Shown: in pieces, positions 29,124-35,382 of the stretch
Numbering within the stretch: the first letter of the stretch is position 1
Layout: each line of letters opens with the position of its first letter
Source: Candidatus Woesearchaeota archaeon
Lineage (GTDB): Archaea; Nanobdellota; Nanobdellia; SCGC-AAA011-G17; JACPNG01
Direction of reading: 5' to 3'
Length of the DNA stretch: 38,025 nt
Assembly (NCBI GenBank): GCA_017609525.1
Contig: JAFCDT010000008.1
Location: forward strand, 1-38,025
The notes under the pieces: generated by a model
What the model saw: the letters and a program-made list of their open reading frames with translations, nothing else
Database searches by the model: none
What the model was told of the DNA's origin: nothing
Position numbers and translations under genes: made by a program

Positions 29124-29366
29124 CTAATTTAGATGCAAAAGCTCTTTAATTTTTGTTTCATCAAAACCAACAACAATCTTTCCATCGATCTCAATTACTG
29201 GAACACCCATTTGACCTGATTTTTCCACCATTTCTTTTGCTTTTTCTTGATCTTTTCCTACGTTAACATCTTCAAACTCAATGTTGTGCTCTTTTAAGAA
29301 GTCTTTAGCTTTATGGCACCATGGACAGCTATCGGTTGAGTAAACTATTACTTTATGTTTTTCCAT
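29124..29366 (-). CDS. glutaredoxin/NrdH-like protein
   Basis: CPWC, SGQMGVPVI..GFD. Confidence 0.92.
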   Translation of the reverse strand: MEKHKVIVYSTDSCPWCHKAKDFLKEHNIEFEDVNVGKDQEKAKEMVEKSGQMGVPVIEIDGKIVVGFDETKIKELLHLN

Positions 29367-29429: not shown

Positions 29430-30413
29430 TTAATATGGATTCTCTATTGTTGTTAGTGTTGTTTCTATTTCTGTTTCATTTCTTATTAATTTAATCTTTG
29501 CTTCTTGTCCTGGTTTAACCCATGCTATTATATTTCTTAGATGATTTATGCTTTCTATTTTTATACCATTTATCTCTGTTATTAAATCCCCTAGTTGGAT
29601 TCCTGCTTTATCTGCTGGACCATCTTTGAGAACTAAAGCCACTAATGCCCCTTTGGCTATATGGCCTTCTCCTCCACTATCGAGGACAAATTGATTCTGA
29701 CCACTTATTCCCATATAGCCCCTAACGATTCTCCCACTTTCAATAAGTTCATTCATCACTTTCTTAGCTAAGTTACTGGGGATTGAAAATCCCAGTTCCC
29801 CTCCAATTAAATCAGAAACAATGAAGGTATTGATCCCCACTAATTCTGCATTTAGATTTAGTAAAGGTCCTCCTGAGTTTCCTGGGTTAATAGAGGCGTC
29901 TGTTTGTATGAAATCCCTGTAGTCTGTTGGCCCCTGGTCACGATGTTTTGCAGAAATTATGCCTGAGGTAACAGTAAAATCATATCCATAGGGATGACCA
30001 ATGGCAATTACTTCTTCACCAATTTTTAGTTTTTCTGAATCTCCGAACTTGATGGTTGGAAGATTTGTGTCGTTTACTTTTATTACTGCAAGATCTACTT
30101 TCTCATCTATTCCAACCACTTTTGCTTTCCTTATCCGATTATCTGAAAAAATCGCATGTAATTTTGTAGCGTTTTTTATAAGGTGAGCATTTGTTAAAAT
30201 AAAACCATTTTCTTTTACTATCACACCGGAACCTGCTTTTCCGTCTGCAGTTATTGATACAACAGATGGGGTTGCTATTCTAGCTACCTCTTCGGGGGTA
30301 TTTTCTTTTAATGTATTCTTTGTTTGACTGTAAGTTATTAGAAGTCCTATTTGTAGCAAGATTACAATACCCAATAATACAACTATTGTTTTCCTTAAGG
30401 TTTTTCTTCTCAT
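29430..30413 (-). CDS. HtrA/DegP-like serine protease with one PDZ domain
   Basis: TNAH, DLAV, QTDASINPGNSGGPL; N-terminal membrane anchor. Confidence 0.93.
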   Translation of the reverse strand: MRRKTLRKTIVVLLGIVILLQIGLLITYSQTKNTLKENTPEEVARIATPSVVSITADGKAGSGVIVKENGFILTNAHLIKNATKLHAIFSDNRIRKAKVVGIDEKVDLAVIKVNDTNLPTIKFGDSEKLKIGEEVIAIGHPYGYDFTVTSGIISAKHRDQGPTDYRDFIQTDASINPGNSGGPLLNLNAELVGINTFIVSDLIGGELGFSIPSNLAKKVMNELIESGRIVRGYMGISGQNQFVLDSGGEGHIAKGALVALVLKDGPADKAGIQLGDLITEINGIKIESINHLRNIIAWVKPGQEAKIKLIRNETEIETTLTTIENPY

Positions 30414-30437: not shown

Positions 30438-30782
30438 CTAATATCTCTTGAATTTGATTCTTTCTTCGAAATAATCAGAAATTCTTGAGCCGTCTGCGTT
30501 TCGTATATCTGTTCTGCTTTTTGTAAAGTATTCATATTCAAATCTGTACCTTTGCCTATAAAATGGTGTGTTGTAGTAGTAGTTTCTATTATGGTAAGAT
30601 GGGTAGTAGTGCTGTGTGTATGGATAGTATCGATAGTTTGGATCATACTGATAATATTTGTGATATGCTGGATAATCTGATGTGTACCTGCCATTTGGCC
30701 CTGTTGGAGCATAGTAATATGCTGAAGCAAAACTAGATATCACAAATATGCTCAAGATTAAGCACATAATCAATTTTTTCAT
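30438..30782 (-). CDS. secreted tyrosine-rich low-complexity protein
   Basis: MKK + hydrophobic stretch + ASA signal peptide; about 25 Tyr; GAGGTGA/GGAGG SD upstream. Confidence 0.75.
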   Translation of the reverse strand: MKKLIMCLILSIFVISSFASAYYYAPTGPNGRYTSDYPAYHKYYQYDPNYRYYPYTQHYYPSYHNRNYYYNTPFYRQRYRFEYEYFTKSRTDIRNADGSRISDYFEERIKFKRY

Positions 30783-31369
30783 TTAGCTCCTCCCTCACCT
30801 CTCGCATTTTTAGATGCATTCTCTTTTAAAAATCTTTTGATTAGGGATCCTATCAGGATTATGGCTAGAGATAGCAAAAAGGCTTGAATTAGGAAGAGAA
30901 TAGCAAATTTGTGAAAGAAGCTCAATGGGTATATATCAAGCAATAGTGAGCCTTTGGGAAGAAGCCATAAGTTGTTTCTGAAGAGGATATAATGCATGCT
31001 GATAAATATTGGCTTAAAAAAAGCTACAATAAGAATTAATAAGCCAACTATTACAAATAAAGAGAGTTTCCCCGCTTTCAGTACTGTTTTTTGAATATTT
31101 GGTTTAATATTAAATAACAATAGACCGTAAATAGTCAGTAAAAAATAAAAGATTAAAGATATTTTATTTATTATTGATTTTACATCTTTTAGATGTAATT
31201 TTTCTCTTTCTGAGAAATTATCATTAAGTTGTGCTTTGTTTTTTAAATAGTCTATTACATTTTTTGCATCAGGACTTTTGGAAGAATAATTAATTTCAAA
31301 AAGAGTTAGTTTAAATGATAGTAAAAGAATTATAAAAGGAGTTAGGATGATGAGTAATTTATTCTTCAT
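30779..31369 (-). CDS. DUF1461 / Lit (lipoprotein intramolecular transacylase)-like membrane protein
   Basis: FSEREKLHLKDVK and FISMHYILFRNNLWLL..LL..YPLSFF motifs; four TM helices. Confidence 0.8.
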   Translation of the reverse strand: MKNKLLIILTPFIILLLSFKLTLFEINYSSKSPDAKNVIDYLKNKAQLNDNFSEREKLHLKDVKSIINKISLIFYFLLTIYGLLLFNIKPNIQKTVLKAGKLSLFVIVGLLILIVAFFKPIFISMHYILFRNNLWLLPKGSLLLDIYPLSFFHKFAILFLIQAFLLSLAIILIGSLIKRFLKENASKNARGEGGAK

Positions 31370-31751
31370 TTAAATTACATTCAGATATTGCAGAAAGCCT
31401 ATTTAAAGACTGTTCCCCTACATATTTTTGTCCATTTATTATCCATGTTGGATAGCCATTGATACTGGCTTCTTCGCATTTTTCAGGTTGTGCGTTCTTT
31501 CCTCTTGGATCACATTCAATGTAGCCCCCTAATGAATCAAATATTTTAAATGAACTCTTAAACATTTCTTTCTGGTTTTTACAATGAGGACACCAATATG
31601 CACCATACAACTTTGCATCTTTTTCTATTAGACAGGTTACAAAGTTGTCATAATCTTTGTTGTTGGTTGTTAAGCCTGTCATCTTAAACGGAATGAATAT
31701 ACCTATTATCAGAACAACTGCTACAATTAAGACAATCCATGTTTTTTTCAT
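31359..31751 (-). CDS. membrane-anchored thioredoxin-like protein (VKOR-partner type)
   Basis: YGAYWCPHC..QK..F, YIEC, C...INGYPTWIING. Confidence 0.85.
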   Translation of the reverse strand: MKKTWIVLIVAVVLIIGIFIPFKMTGLTTNNKDYDNFVTCLIEKDAKLYGAYWCPHCKNQKEMFKSSFKIFDSLGGYIECDPRGKNAQPEKCEEASINGYPTWIINGQKYVGEQSLNRLSAISECNLNEE

Positions 31752-31836
31752 AGGTTTTTTAGATTATGGGTAATATAAATACCTTTCTATTTAGGGATAA
31801 CATAATTTTATAAAGAGAAAAACTGAATATTACGGC

Positions 31837-32580
31837 ATGTTTTATCATAACATCAGTCCTGTTTTATTTCATATTTTTGGTCTAGAGGTTAGGTATTATG
31901 GCTTATTTTATTTGTTAGGATTTGTAATAGCTTATTTTTTTATGAAGTTTTTGGCTAAAGAAAGAAAATTAGACTTAAAAAAAGAAGAAATACTTGATTT
32001 TCTTTTTTATATTTTGATAGGCGGAATAATTGGAGCTAGGATTGGCTATGTTCTTTCACATCTGTCGAGTTATGTTGAAAATCCGCTGTCTGCTTTGTAT
32101 ATTTGGCAGGGGGGATTGGCTTTTCATGGTGGTTTGATAGGAGCACTAATTGTTGCTTTGTTCTTTTGCAAGAAAAAGAAAATCAGCTTTTATAAGTTAG
32201 CGGACATTACAGTGATTCCCTTTTCGTTAGGCATTGTTTTGGTTAGGTTGGCTAATTTTACTAATGGCGAACTTTATGGCAGGATAACTGATGTTGCATG
32301 GGCGGTTAAGTTTAAAGGTGTTGAAGGTTTTCGGCATCCTTCACAAATATATGCTTCTATTAAAGGTTTGGCCATATTTCTTATTTTGTTTTTAACAAGA
32401 AATAAAAAACATAAAGATGGTTATATTTTTTGGCTATTTATCACCTTATATGGTTTATTTAGATTTTTTGTCGAATTTTATAGGGAACAAATCTACCTGT
32501 TTTTGGGAATATCTTTTACGCAAATTTTAAGTATTATTATGTTTTTAGTAGGGATATACTTTGTTTTTAAAAAGAGGTAA
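31837..32580 (+). CDS. lgt: prolipoprotein diacylglyceryl transferase
   Basis: RYYGLFY, GARIGY, GGLAFHGG, RLANFTNGELYGR, RHPSQIY, YGLFRFFVEFYR. Confidence 0.93.
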   Translation: MFYHNISPVLFHIFGLEVRYYGLFYLLGFVIAYFFMKFLAKERKLDLKKEEILDFLFYILIGGIIGARIGYVLSHLSSYVENPLSALYIWQGGLAFHGGLIGALIVALFFCKKKKISFYKLADITVIPFSLGIVLVRLANFTNGELYGRITDVAWAVKFKGVEGFRHPSQIYASIKGLAIFLILFLTRNKKHKDGYIFWLFITLYGLFRFFVEFYREQIYLFLGISFTQILSIIMFLVGIYFVFKKR

Positions 32581-32583
32581 ATA

Positions 32584-33150
32584 ATGAAAGAGAGCATTAG
32601 AAGAGACATTTTGCATGTATTGCAGGATAGTTTGAAAGCAATACAGGAAAAAGATGCCCTGAAATTAAGAGAGGTTAGTGATCATGTTATACATGATTGT
32701 ACTGTTTCTCAGGAAAGCGAGGTTGTTTCTGTTGCAGTAATTATTTATTCTTTATCTAAAATTTTTGACAAATGGCAGCATAGAGATGATAAAAAGTGGA
32801 AAAAATTCAAGATAAGGGTTGTTAATGACCTAAATAAAGCATTGCAGTTTCTTAAAGAAGGGAATGTCACCAAGTATAAAACTATTTTACAGGGATTTTT
32901 TAAAGCCATTGGAGATATTGATAATAAACTGGGCTTGTATATAAGCAAGGTTATAAGTCAAGCAAAAATTAAGAAAGGTTCGAGAGTTTATGAACATGGT
33001 TTGTCTGTTTCAAGGGCAGCTGAGATATTAGATATTTCTATTTGGGAATTGATGAGTTATTTAGGCAATACTAAAATTGTTGACCAAGATCCGGTATTAA
33101 CTAAGAAAGTTAAAGAAAGATTGATTTTTACAAGGGGGTTATTCACATGA
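32584..33150 (+). CDS. helical protein with C-terminal UPF0175-like HTH
   Basis: HGLSVSRAAEILDISIWELMSYLG. Confidence 0.7.
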   Translation: MKESIRRDILHVLQDSLKAIQEKDALKLREVSDHVIHDCTVSQESEVVSVAVIIYSLSKIFDKWQHRDDKKWKKFKIRVVNDLNKALQFLKEGNVTKYKTILQGFFKAIGDIDNKLGLYISKVISQAKIKKGSRVYEHGLSVSRAAEILDISIWELMSYLGNTKIVDQDPVLTKKVKERLIFTRGLFT

Positions 33151-33863
33151 GGGCCATGGTTTTTGATTCAAGTTCAATAATAACTTTGGCTACGAATAAT
33201 TTATTATGGACCTTAAAACATTTGAAAGAGAAGTTTCAAGGCAATTTTTACATTACAGAAGGGGTTAAAGAAGAGGTAATTGACCGTCCTCTAAAAACAA
33301 GAAAGTTTAAACTAGAAGCCATGCAAATTTTAGCTTTGGTTTCTGAAGGTATTGTAGAAATCTATAGCAATAAAAGGGTTCAGGAAAGGGCAGCTTATTT
33401 TTCTAATTTAGCCAATAATATTTTTGAAGCACATGGGAATTTTATTAAGATTGTTCAAAAAGGAGAAATGGAAAGTTTGGCTTTGGTTGAATATTTGAGT
33501 GCAAACGCTTTTGTAATTGATGAAAGAACCACCAGGGTATTAATAGAAGAACCCACGAGGTTAGCAAAACTTTTTTCCCATAAGTTGCATACTCCTATCA
33601 AGGTCAATAAAAATGGTTTAAGAGCATTTAAAGAATTAGTGAATGTTAATGTGATTAGGAGTGTGGAGCTGATGACCATTGCATATGAAATGGGACTTTT
33701 GAATAAATATCTTAATGAGAAAGAAAAAGAAATTGCTAATATTGATTTGAATAAGACTTTGTTAGAGGGTTTACTTTGGGGATTAAGATTAAAAGGTTGT
33801 GCGATTTCTACTAATGAGATAAATGAAATTATGAGATTGAAGGGTTTTAGTGGGCGAGGGTAA
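33147..33863 (+). CDS. PIN-domain protein
   Basis: VFDSSSII, V.EEV, GEMESLAL, IDERTTR acidic motifs; ATGA overlap with upstream gene. Confidence 0.75.
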   Translation: MRAMVFDSSSIITLATNNLLWTLKHLKEKFQGNFYITEGVKEEVIDRPLKTRKFKLEAMQILALVSEGIVEIYSNKRVQERAAYFSNLANNIFEAHGNFIKIVQKGEMESLALVEYLSANAFVIDERTTRVLIEEPTRLAKLFSHKLHTPIKVNKNGLRAFKELVNVNVIRSVELMTIAYEMGLLNKYLNEKEKEIANIDLNKTLLEGLLWGLRLKGCAISTNEINEIMRLKGFSGRG

Positions 33864-33898: not shown

Positions 33899-33972
33899 GG
33901 GGGCGTAGTTTAACTTGGCTAGAGCACGCGGCTCCAGACCGCGAAATGGGGGTTCAAATCCCTCCGTCCCCA
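33899..33972 (+). tRNA. tRNA-Trp(CCA), intronless, CCA end not encoded
   Basis: Acceptor stem GGGGGCG/CGTCCCC, anticodon arm CGCGG-CTCCAGA-CCGCG, T-arm GGGGG-TTCAAAT-CCCTC; TATA box 33866-33873. Confidence 0.95.
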
Positions 33973-34110: not shown

Positions 34111-35382
34111 ATGATGAAAAAGATCTTATTTGCTTTAATTGCTTTGGTTGTTTTAAATATAGCCCTTGCCCAAGATTATGTTCTAGATAAGGTAGAAATT
34201 GATGGAGCAACTGTTCTAGAAGATGGTTTGGTTGTGGGGAGCGGAGCAGTTTTTCTTGAAAGAGGGAGTACAGCAGATATAGAGGTTTTTGTTAAAAGTT
34301 TAGATGGTGTTGATTTTGAGGCTATAAAGGATGTTAAAGTTAAAGCTTGGATTGGTGGATATGAGTATGGAGATGTAGAAGAAACAAGCGAAATCTTTGA
34401 CATTAATGCACCAAATGTAGTTTATAAGAAAACTTTAAGATTGGATATTCCAAATGACCTTGATGTAGATGAAGGGGACTATACACTATTTGTTAAGGTT
34501 TTTGATAGAACCGATAGTGTAGAAGAAAGCTTTGATGTTTTTCTTGAAGAAAAAAGACATCTTTTGAAGATACAAGATGTTATTCTAAGGCCAACAAATG
34601 TTGTGGATGCAGGAGCACCTCTTTTTGTTGTTGTGAGAGTGGAAAATCTAGGTGATAAAAAAGAAGAGGATATTAGAGTAAGCGTTAGTATCCCAGAACT
34701 AGGTCTTAGCACAAGGGACTACATAGATGAATTGGCTGCACATGAAATAGACAATGAGGATGAAGAAGATTCTGAATCAAGTAATGAGATTTTCCTAAGA
34801 ATACCAAAAGATACTGCAAGTGGTTTATACACATTAAAGGTTGATGTTGAATACGATAGAGGACATAAAACAGTAAGTAAACAAGAAACCATTAATGTTC
34901 TAGGTAAGGAAAAAGAAGAAGTTAAAAAACCAGCAGAAGCAATGGTCGTTGTTGATAGTTCTAGCCAGAGCGTTAGAGGCGGAGAGGAAGCATTGTATAG
35001 ACTTACCTTAATGAATACTGGCGAAGAAGCAGAACTGTATTCTCTAGAAGTTAGTGGAGAGAAATTATTTGCAAGTTCAAGAGTCGATCCTGGATTTGTA
35101 TTAATCAAAGGAGGAGAAAGTGCTTCTTTTGATGTTATAGTCAGGGCGAACGAGAATGCAGACGGCATTAAGAACTTTGTTGTTAAGGTTAAGGCTGGAG
35201 AAACTATTATTAAGGAACTACCACTTAGCTTAGAAGTGACTGGAAGATCTTATGATTTAGGTACTGTTTTGGTTGCAGGTTTTATTGTGTTGATTGTGGT
35301 TTTGATTATTTTAGGAGTAGTACTTTTGGCAACCAAGAGTAGACCTGAAGAACCTGGATCAGAAGGACAAAGCTATTACTAA
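34111..35382 (+). CDS. acidic exported Ig-like/CARDB surface (S-layer-like) protein
   Basis: Signal peptide, beta-rich repeated modules (VRVENLG, LMNTG), C-terminal TM and short tail ending YY; GGGGGG SD-like motif. Confidence 0.7.
   Translation: MMKKILFALIALVVLNIALAQDYVLDKVEIDGATVLEDGLVVGSGAVFLERGSTADIEVFVKSLDGVDFEAIKDVKVKAWIGGYEYGDVEETSEIFDINAPNVVYKKTLRLDIPNDLDVDEGDYTLFVKVFDRTDSVEESFDVFLEEKRHLLKIQDVILRPTNVVDAGAPLFVVVRVENLGDKKEEDIRVSVSIPELGLSTRDYIDELAAHEIDNEDEEDSESSNEIFLRIPKDTASGLYTLKVDVEYDRGHKTVSKQETINVLGKEKEEVKKPAEAMVVVDSSSQSVRGGEEALYRLTLMNTGEEAELYSLEVSGEKLFASSRVDPGFVLIKGGESASFDVIVRANENADGIKNFVVKVKAGETIIKELPLSLEVTGRSYDLGTVLVAGFIVLIVVLIILGVVLLATKSRPEEPGSEGQSYY

Follow-up and report, generated by a model that had tools for sequence, protein, structure and literature searches.

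The closest described systems for maturing lipoproteins are the phosphatidylglycerol:prolipoprotein diacylglyceryl transferase (Lgt) of Escherichia coli (PDB 5AZB and 5AZC), the lipoprotein signal peptidase LspA of Staphylococcus aureus and Pseudomonas aeruginosa (6RYO and 5DIR) and the lipoprotein intramolecular transacylase (Lit) of Bacillus cereus (7B0O and 7B0P), the fold of which was novel when solved. The roles of the key Lgt residues considered below are those given in the accessible parts of Mao 2016 and Hong 2025, while the accessible part of Olatunji 2021 describes, for B. cereus Lit, the catalytic dyad H85/H153 and the conserved residues V89, F149, F157 and W162. Among archaea, lipoproteins are predicted to be prevalent in DPANN lineages (Hong 2025, accessible part), and lipidation in Haloferax volcanii is ascribed to AliA and AliB (arCOG02177 and arCOG02178), in an account built on the absence of such bacterial lipoprotein enzymes from archaea, as stated in the accessible text of papers from 2025-2026. 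Here, we describe a 38,025-nt stretch of DNA from a Candidatus Woesearchaeota archaeon (contig JAFCDT010000008.1, hereafter called the window), which encodes an Lgt and a Lit-like protein. Judged by sequence, these two enzymes and an LspA encoded elsewhere in the genome make up a complete bacterial-type pathway of lipoprotein maturation, which appears to be present in the host and in most of the phylum members sampled (the phylum being Nanoarchaeota in the Woesearchaeota/Pacearchaeota sense).

Lgt, Lit-like and LspA homologs

On profile and pairwise matches, the plus-strand gene in question (Table 1) encodes a true, unambiguous member of the Lgt family. The protein scored 246.6 bits against Pfam LGT (PF01790; cut-off 24.9), spanning positions 1-239 of the 240 in the profile, and 181.1 bits against TIGR00544, the NCBI Lgt equivalog (cut-off 118.9), and it matched E. 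coli Lgt (5azb) with an E-value of 6.6e-38. The equivalents of E. coli Y26 (Y21), H103 (H97, in FHGG), R143/N146/E151/G154 (R137/N140/E145/G148) and Y235/R239/E243 (Y205/R209/E213) were all retained, as was the RHPSQ motif. The original prediction, made from the letters of the window and its open reading frames (ORFs), had described a full Lgt with the motifs that carry the catalytic residues in bacteria; every motif that it listed was present, and its gene coordinates were borne out by the ORF listing.

The Lit-like protein scored 64 bits against PF07314 (cut-off 24), a match to DUF1461 having been set beforehand as a test, and was matched by B. cereus Lit (7b0o) in phmmer with an E-value of 2.6e-6. 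Its residues H59 (in HLKDV), V63, F122, H126 (in MHYILFRNNLW), F130 and W135 are the equivalents of B. cereus H85, V89, F149, H153, F157 and W162, respectively, in agreement with the earlier description of a DUF1461 protein retaining both histidine motifs. Among 39 archaeal homologs, H59, V63, H126 and F130 were each present in 39, W135 in 37 and F122 in 36; the invariant columns were H59, V63, H126, F130 and F152, and no cysteine was conserved. An AlphaFold2 model built from an alignment (A1) of 36 of these homologs had a predicted local distance difference test score of 94 and a predicted template modelling score of 0.87, and a Foldseek search of the PDB with this model gave six matches at E<=1e-3, all of them to B. 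cereus Lit (best TMq 0.77). The Lit fold, consisting of four transmembrane helices and an extracytoplasmic cap, was matched by the model, which points to a Lit/DUF1461-family protein with the Lit fold and both catalytic histidines.

LspA was located on another contig of the same genome (G000:C22:21048-21410) as a 133-residue protein scoring 107.3 bits against PF01252 (cut-off 25) and matching S. aureus LspA (6ryo) with an E-value of 3.4e-15. It keeps GNLIDR and FNIADS, which we take to hold the catalytic aspartates. The original prediction had seen neither an LspA nor a clear lipobox substrate; this stands for the window but not genome-wide, where the signal peptidase II and the lipobox proteins that it had expected to accompany a functional Lgt were both present, the latter as at least eight precursors.

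Co-occurrence and linkage in the phylum

Across 61 genomes of the same family or order, Lgt was found in 54, LspA in 58 and the Lit-like protein in 38, and in the subset that was at least 90% complete the corresponding ratios were 34/35, 35/35 and 23/35, so that the co-occurrence suggested beforehand for relatives was observed. A wider sample of 401 genomes of the phylum was surveyed for Lgt, including those flagged as unpublished (G428, G393, G283, G284, G368 and G357), and 338 of them contained it (337 of 400 good genomes and 237 of 281 genera). What had been put forward as a trait of one cell is instead near-universal in the sampled phylum. Nine genomes without Lgt, all 95-100% complete (families f45, f50, f62 and f71), were also without LspA (0/9) and Lit-like (0/9), and Lgt, LspA and Lit-like thus come and go together. 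One further genome, G108, belongs to a family with Lgt in 41 of 42 genomes and contained both LspA and Lit-like.

The Lit-like gene lay within 5 kb of Lgt (at most 3.4 kb away) in 9 of the 38 Lit-positive genomes (G000, which is the window genome, G001, G011, G023, G025, G031, G051, G056 and G057), in varying arrangements. At one locus from a metagenome-assembled genome (MAG; L018), it overlaps Lgt on the same strand, and in two genomes (G021 and G041) it is directly downstream of LspA, so that linkage to Lgt or LspA was seen in 11 of 38 overall. The clustering of Lgt and Lit-like genes noted at the outset therefore holds in the window but is not the rule among relatives. The steadier neighbours of the Lit-like gene are thiol-redox genes. 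Some relatives had several Lgt-family matches, namely four in G034 and six in G239; the extra matches of G034 reached just 73-77 bits and may be diverged paralogs.

Lipobox precursors

A strict scan, which called for a basic n-region, an uncharged hydrophobic h-region, a lipobox and a polar mature start, retrieved the eight lipobox precursors from the 785-kb genome, and Pfam matches among these include a rhodanese, a DUF411 protein and a PEBP protein. When any residue was allowed at position +1 as a control, Cys topped the frequency-normalised count with 6.4 hits per % frequency, compared with 4.4 for Trp and a median of ~1.5. A first, loose scan had given no clean enrichment (13 matches for C, against 84 for S, 49 for A and 50 for G). 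In 401 kb surrounding the Lgt and Lit-like genes of relatives, we found 21 strict lipobox ORFs, 20 of them distinct, including thioredoxin-fold proteins encoded directly upstream of Lit-like, CuA-type cupredoxins and a hydrolase adjoining Lgt.

Several of these lipoproteins have features related to copper. The DUF411 lipoprotein of the window genome (G000:C14:8090-8554(-)) adjoins a CPC-motif P-type ATPase (C14:4057-5184(-)), and cupredoxin-like lipoproteins with the pattern C-x3-C-x3-H-x2-M (L078:5128-5550(-) and L071:2991-3434(-)) adjoin Lit-like in G013 and G056. The Lit paralog Lit2 of Listeria and Enterococcus is copper-induced, and the copper-related lipoproteins near the pathway genes may echo this link.

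Proposed pathway and donor lipid

Taking together the observed family membership, catalytic residues, fold, co-occurrence, gene linkage and presence of substrates, we consider it probable that a working bacterial-type pathway leads from Lgt through LspA to the Lit-like protein and acts on lipobox proteins, with the Lit-like gene forming part of an operon for envelope folding and stress. Lgt would attach a glyceryl-lipid moiety, from a phosphatidylglycerol-type donor, through a thioether to the lipobox Cys of exported precursors, and LspA would then cleave the signal peptide ahead of the lipidated Cys. The His59/His126 dyad of the Lit-like protein, on the outer membrane face, would remodel the new N-terminus, most likely by shifting an ester-linked sn-2 acyl chain to the alpha-amino group to give the lyso-form. 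Candidate substrates would be exported thiol oxidoreductases, cupredoxins, the PEBP protein, the rhodanese and the DUF411 protein.

Regarding the source of the lipid, none of GGGP synthase (GGGPS), CarS, CDP-alcohol phosphatidyltransferase, PlsC, PlsY and UbiA was found in the genome, in searches whose controls matched as expected, and GGGPS was found in 0 of 40 good relatives. The donor lipid is therefore probably scavenged, the cell being apparently unable to make glycerolipids. Relatives with PlsC-type acyltransferase matches were G030, G033, G043 and G044, none of which had GGGPS; these matches hint that some members handle ester-type lipids.

The active-site residues H59, V63, H126 and F130 do not vary among the 39 archaeal homologs of Lit, which argues that at least some of the anchors may carry an ester-linked acyl chain. 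The failure to find lipid-synthesis genes in the genome likewise speaks for the bacterial ester lipids that the original prediction had suggested as anchors. A bolder and distinctly tentative extension is that members of the phylum might build their surface with ester-linked bacterial-type glycerolipids obtained from bacterial partners, which would yield diacylglyceryl and lyso-form lipoproteins. If this were true, the 'lipid divide' would no longer fully separate these archaeal cells from bacteria, and both their membrane chemistry and a bacterial host could be read from the genome through the retained Lit active site.

Several points weigh against a working pathway of this kind. The functions of Lgt, LspA and the Lit-like protein are read from sequence and a model, and if the membrane consisted of ether-linked isoprenoids from an archaeal host, Lit chemistry would be left without a substrate. 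Lgt of the window has Val (V136, codon 32242-32244) at the position of E. coli G142, where the mutants G142A/I/V are reported as inactive (Mao 2016, accessible part). Gly occupies this column in 24 of 26 archaeal and 22 of 22 bacterial aligned Lgt sequences (46/48 overall), and the sole other exception is Ile in G011, of the closest genus; the loss of Gly thus appears, from this alignment, to be lineage-specific to two close genera. The Lit-like protein falls below the NCBIfam cut-offs (53.4 against 74.8 bits for TIGR01906, and 23.8 against 400 for the Lit equivalog NF051877), and its Pfam match covers profile positions 50-176 only. Moreover, it was not found in 12 of the 35 good relatives, most of which had Lgt and LspA, and is therefore dispensable. 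Gene absences in the window genome are provisional at its 86% completeness, and the distribution counts are descriptive, as genomes of one phylum are kin and not independent samples. The number of lipobox precursors is modest, and the Lgt-less genome G112, which might use AliA, still gave two strict matches (one of them convincing) in 491 kb; the comparison of G000 with G112 pointed in the expected direction but, with n=1, was not decisive. Finally, CDP-alcohol phosphatidyltransferase was found in 15 of 40 relatives and a PlsC-type acyltransferase in 4 of 40, and some relatives should therefore be able to at least modify lipids.

Some of these points would fit a different scheme, in which Lgt and LspA are adapted to archaeal lipids and attach archaeol (a diether) from host archaetidylglycerol, while the Lit-like protein, which could not transacylate an ether, does something else at the membrane surface, such as adding another acyl group or an acetyl group to the N-terminus or handling lipids. 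The organism is an archaeon, haloarchaeal lipoproteins have been reported with thioether-linked archaeol (Hong 2025, accessible part), and the chemistry of Lgt cleaves the C-O-P bond and not the chain linkages (Mao 2016, accessible part). The dispensability of the Lit-like protein and its score under the Lit equivalog cut-off would be in line with a changed role, and V136, which adjoins the lipid-binding R137, could reflect an altered pocket. However, a Lit active site kept in all archaeal homologs as in bacterial Lit is hard to explain if the reaction was lost, the finding of GGGPS in none of 40 relatives means that nothing shows archaeal lipids to be present, and the V136-type change is confined to two close genera, with nearly all of the aligned archaeal Lgt sequences keeping Gly. 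We regard adaptation to ether lipids as rather unlikely, although it is the main competitor of the bacterial-type reading.

Gene neighbourhood

The gene order and strands around Lgt were as originally claimed, with Lgt divergent from the thioredoxin-like and DUF1461 genes (Table 1). The bacterial-type pathway favoured above would place the Lit-like gene in an envelope protein-folding and stress operon, made up of the exported thioredoxin-like protein, the Lit-like protein, a secreted protein, HtrA and a glutaredoxin. In keeping with the envelope maturation module envisaged earlier, this minus-strand run does look like an envelope maturation and quality-control operon.

Table 1. Genes for Lgt and the Lit-like protein and their neighbours in the window.
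Feature	Position	Strand	Details
Glutaredoxin-like protein, YruB family	29124-29366	-	CPWC, no signal peptide; TIGR02196 102.9 bits (cut-off 88.55)
HtrA/DegP-type serine protease	29430-30413	-	PDZ, N-terminal membrane anchor; Trypsin_2 121.8 bits, PDZ_2 50.5 bits
Small secreted Tyr-rich protein	30438-30782	-	Type-I-like signal peptide; no family
Lit-like protein (PF07314, formerly DUF1461)	30779-31369	-	Four-helix membrane protein, 196 aa; His dyad H59/H126
Membrane-anchored exported thioredoxin-fold protein	31359-31751	-	WCPHC motif; 3kp8 match, weak Pfam Thioredoxin match
Lgt, prolipoprotein diacylglyceryl transferase homolog	31837-32580	+	247 aa; Pfam LGT, TIGR00544 and 5azb matches
Two overlapping genes	32584-33863	+	188 + 238 aa, directly after Lgt; no known family

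The thioredoxin-like gene is separated from Lgt by an 85-bp spacer and shares 11 nt with the Lit-like gene. The thioredoxin domain of Synechococcus VKOR (3kp8) matched its product with an E-value of 2.7e-22, which suggests the type that is fused to bacterial VKOR, and a search of the genome for VKOR itself (PF07884) as a partner gave no match. In G001, G011, G006, G043 and G009, the gene immediately upstream of Lit-like is an ortholog of this thioredoxin-like gene; the orthologs of G011 and G001 bear a lipobox, and the copy in the window has an uncleaved membrane anchor. The gene for the small secreted protein overlaps the stop codon of the Lit-like gene by 4 nt, and the protein contains Y and YY runs with N, P and R; it had no match in Pfam and NCBIfam, and a homolog was found only in G011. 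The HtrA protein scored 321.9 bits against TIGR02037, short of the cut-off of 416.

Of the 39 Lit-like loci, 12 have a same-strand gene for an exported thioredoxin-fold protein no more than 0.8 kb upstream, and 8 of these 12 genes encode a lipobox. The upstream proteins are of three types, namely the VKOR-partner type seen in the window, a WCPHC type and a DsbA-like type. A same-strand homolog of the window glutaredoxin gene follows Lit-like at a distance of no more than 100 bp in 11 of 39 loci (L047, L049, L051, L054, L055, L060, L061, L067, L068, L072 and L073, from five families) and of no more than 2 kb in 20, the window being counted. No neighbour of Lit-like is more conserved than this YruB-family gene.

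These neighbours raise the question of whether the Lit-like protein might, in the manner of CcdA/DsbD or VKOR, act as the membrane part of a thiol-redox relay that connects the exported thioredoxin-fold protein to the glutaredoxin in the cytoplasm; the thioredoxin-like protein of the window is, moreover, of the VKOR-partner type, yet no VKOR was detected. We judge such a relay improbable because the Lit-like family has no conserved cysteine. Its invariant residues instead follow the pattern of the active site with which B. cereus Lit transfers acyl chains, and its gene shows linkage to those for Lgt and LspA and was missing wherever these two were missing.

Both genes of the overlapping pair following Lgt lacked matches in Pfam and NCBIfam; the pair is retained beside Lgt in G011, G012 and G014 and was found also in G005. 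Further downstream, a tRNA-Trp (33899-33972) precedes a gene for a secreted protein with a C-terminal membrane anchor (34111-35382(+)), which scored 85 bits against the PACE-CTERM putative S-layer model (cut-off 110).

Host and origin of Lgt

The contig carrying Lgt and the Lit-like gene also encodes prefoldin, GatD, GatE, an ATP-dependent DNA ligase, TrmB, and SepF with FtsZ, which are archaeal markers. In a species-representative collection, the nearest named Lgt loci came from Woesearchaeota, Nanoarchaeota and Nanoarchaeia MAGs (44-58% identity), and the nearest bacterial Lgt among the sequences retrieved reached about 41% identity or less. Because of these markers and nearest loci, the host is a small-genome DPANN-type archaeon, as the original prediction had assumed, and mis-binning is no explanation. 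Contamination was rejected on the basis of the archaeal contig markers and the phylum-wide occurrence of the genes. That a bacterial contig was mis-binned into an archaeal MAG, or that the genes are decaying relics of a recent transfer, is hardly credible despite the fragmented, MAG-like assembly of 66 contigs and the typically bacterial nature of Lgt, LspA and Lit, which had no match in four archaeal control genomes, given that archaeal markers share the contig, that the ORFs are intact and free of internal stops, that the genes occur in most of the 401 sampled genomes, including single-contig ones, and that 20 of the 22 sampled bacterial Lgt sequences form one well-supported clade excluding all archaeal sequences.

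The last of these observations comes from a tree that was built by a quick maximum-likelihood method from 48 Lgt sequences, 26 of them archaeal and 22 bacterial, the bacterial ones having been retrieved by peptide patterns of the window protein only. The clade of 20 bacterial sequences had 100% support, and the remaining two, on long branches, fell among the archaea without strong support. The tree is compatible with a single archaeal origin of Lgt, and no donor can be named from such a small and biased bacterial sample. The record titles of L015, L016, L020 and L022 look wrong: in three MAG contigs titled 'uncultured Methanosarcinales archaeon', Lgt groups with Woesearchaeota/Nanoarchaeota sequences, and Lgt of a 3.2-kb contig titled 'Lactobacillus sp.' falls inside an alphaproteobacterial clade.

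Comparison with known systems

In the literature searched, we found no paper whose text connects DPANN, Woesearchaeota or Nanoarchaeota with Lgt, with diacylglyceryl transferase or with lipoprotein signal peptidase, except ones stating their absence. The main text of Castelle 2021, which treats bacterial systems in DPANN archaea, contains neither 'lipoprotein' nor 'signal peptidase' (0 occurrences each); its supplementary tables and Supplementary Data 1-3 of Hong 2025 may list these families or DPANN AliA. Four accessions in NCBI nr are already named 'prolipoprotein diacylglyceryl transferase [Candidatus Woesearchaeota archaeon]', and archaeal Lgt homologs thus appear, as far as we found, to be annotated and undiscussed in the literature. 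Canonical Lgt and LspA together with a Lit-like protein, linked in genomes of one large archaeal phylum and encoded with lipobox substrates, bear on how Lgt copes with archaeal membranes, on the lipids of uncultured symbionts and on whether some of these live on bacteria, as well as on the proposal that AliA descends from Lgt.

Compared with E. coli Lgt, the window protein is alike in its full-length hidden Markov model match, in the equivalents of Y26, H103, R143, N146, E151, G154, Y235, R239 and E243, and in its co-occurrence with LspA and lipobox precursors; it differs in its archaeal host, in which no lipid-synthesis genes were found, and in the Val at the essential G142. The LspA of the window genome resembles those of S. 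aureus and P. aeruginosa in its PF01252 match and in GNLIDR and FNIADS, but it is shorter, belongs to an archaeal host and is encoded outside the window. With B. cereus Lit, the Lit-like protein shares the four-helix fold and cap and the equivalents of H85/H153, V89, F149, F157 and W162, and its gene is linked to Lgt and LspA genes. It differs in an identity of ~19-20%, in a divergent N-terminal third and in the embedding of its gene among those for exported thioredoxin-fold proteins and glutaredoxin. AliA and AliB of H. volcanii have the task proposed here, the lipidation of lipobox cysteines in an archaeon; AliA, however, has only a marginal similarity to Lgt (29% in HHpred, according to the accessible part of Hong 2025), whereas the window protein is, by its profile matches, unambiguously an Lgt.

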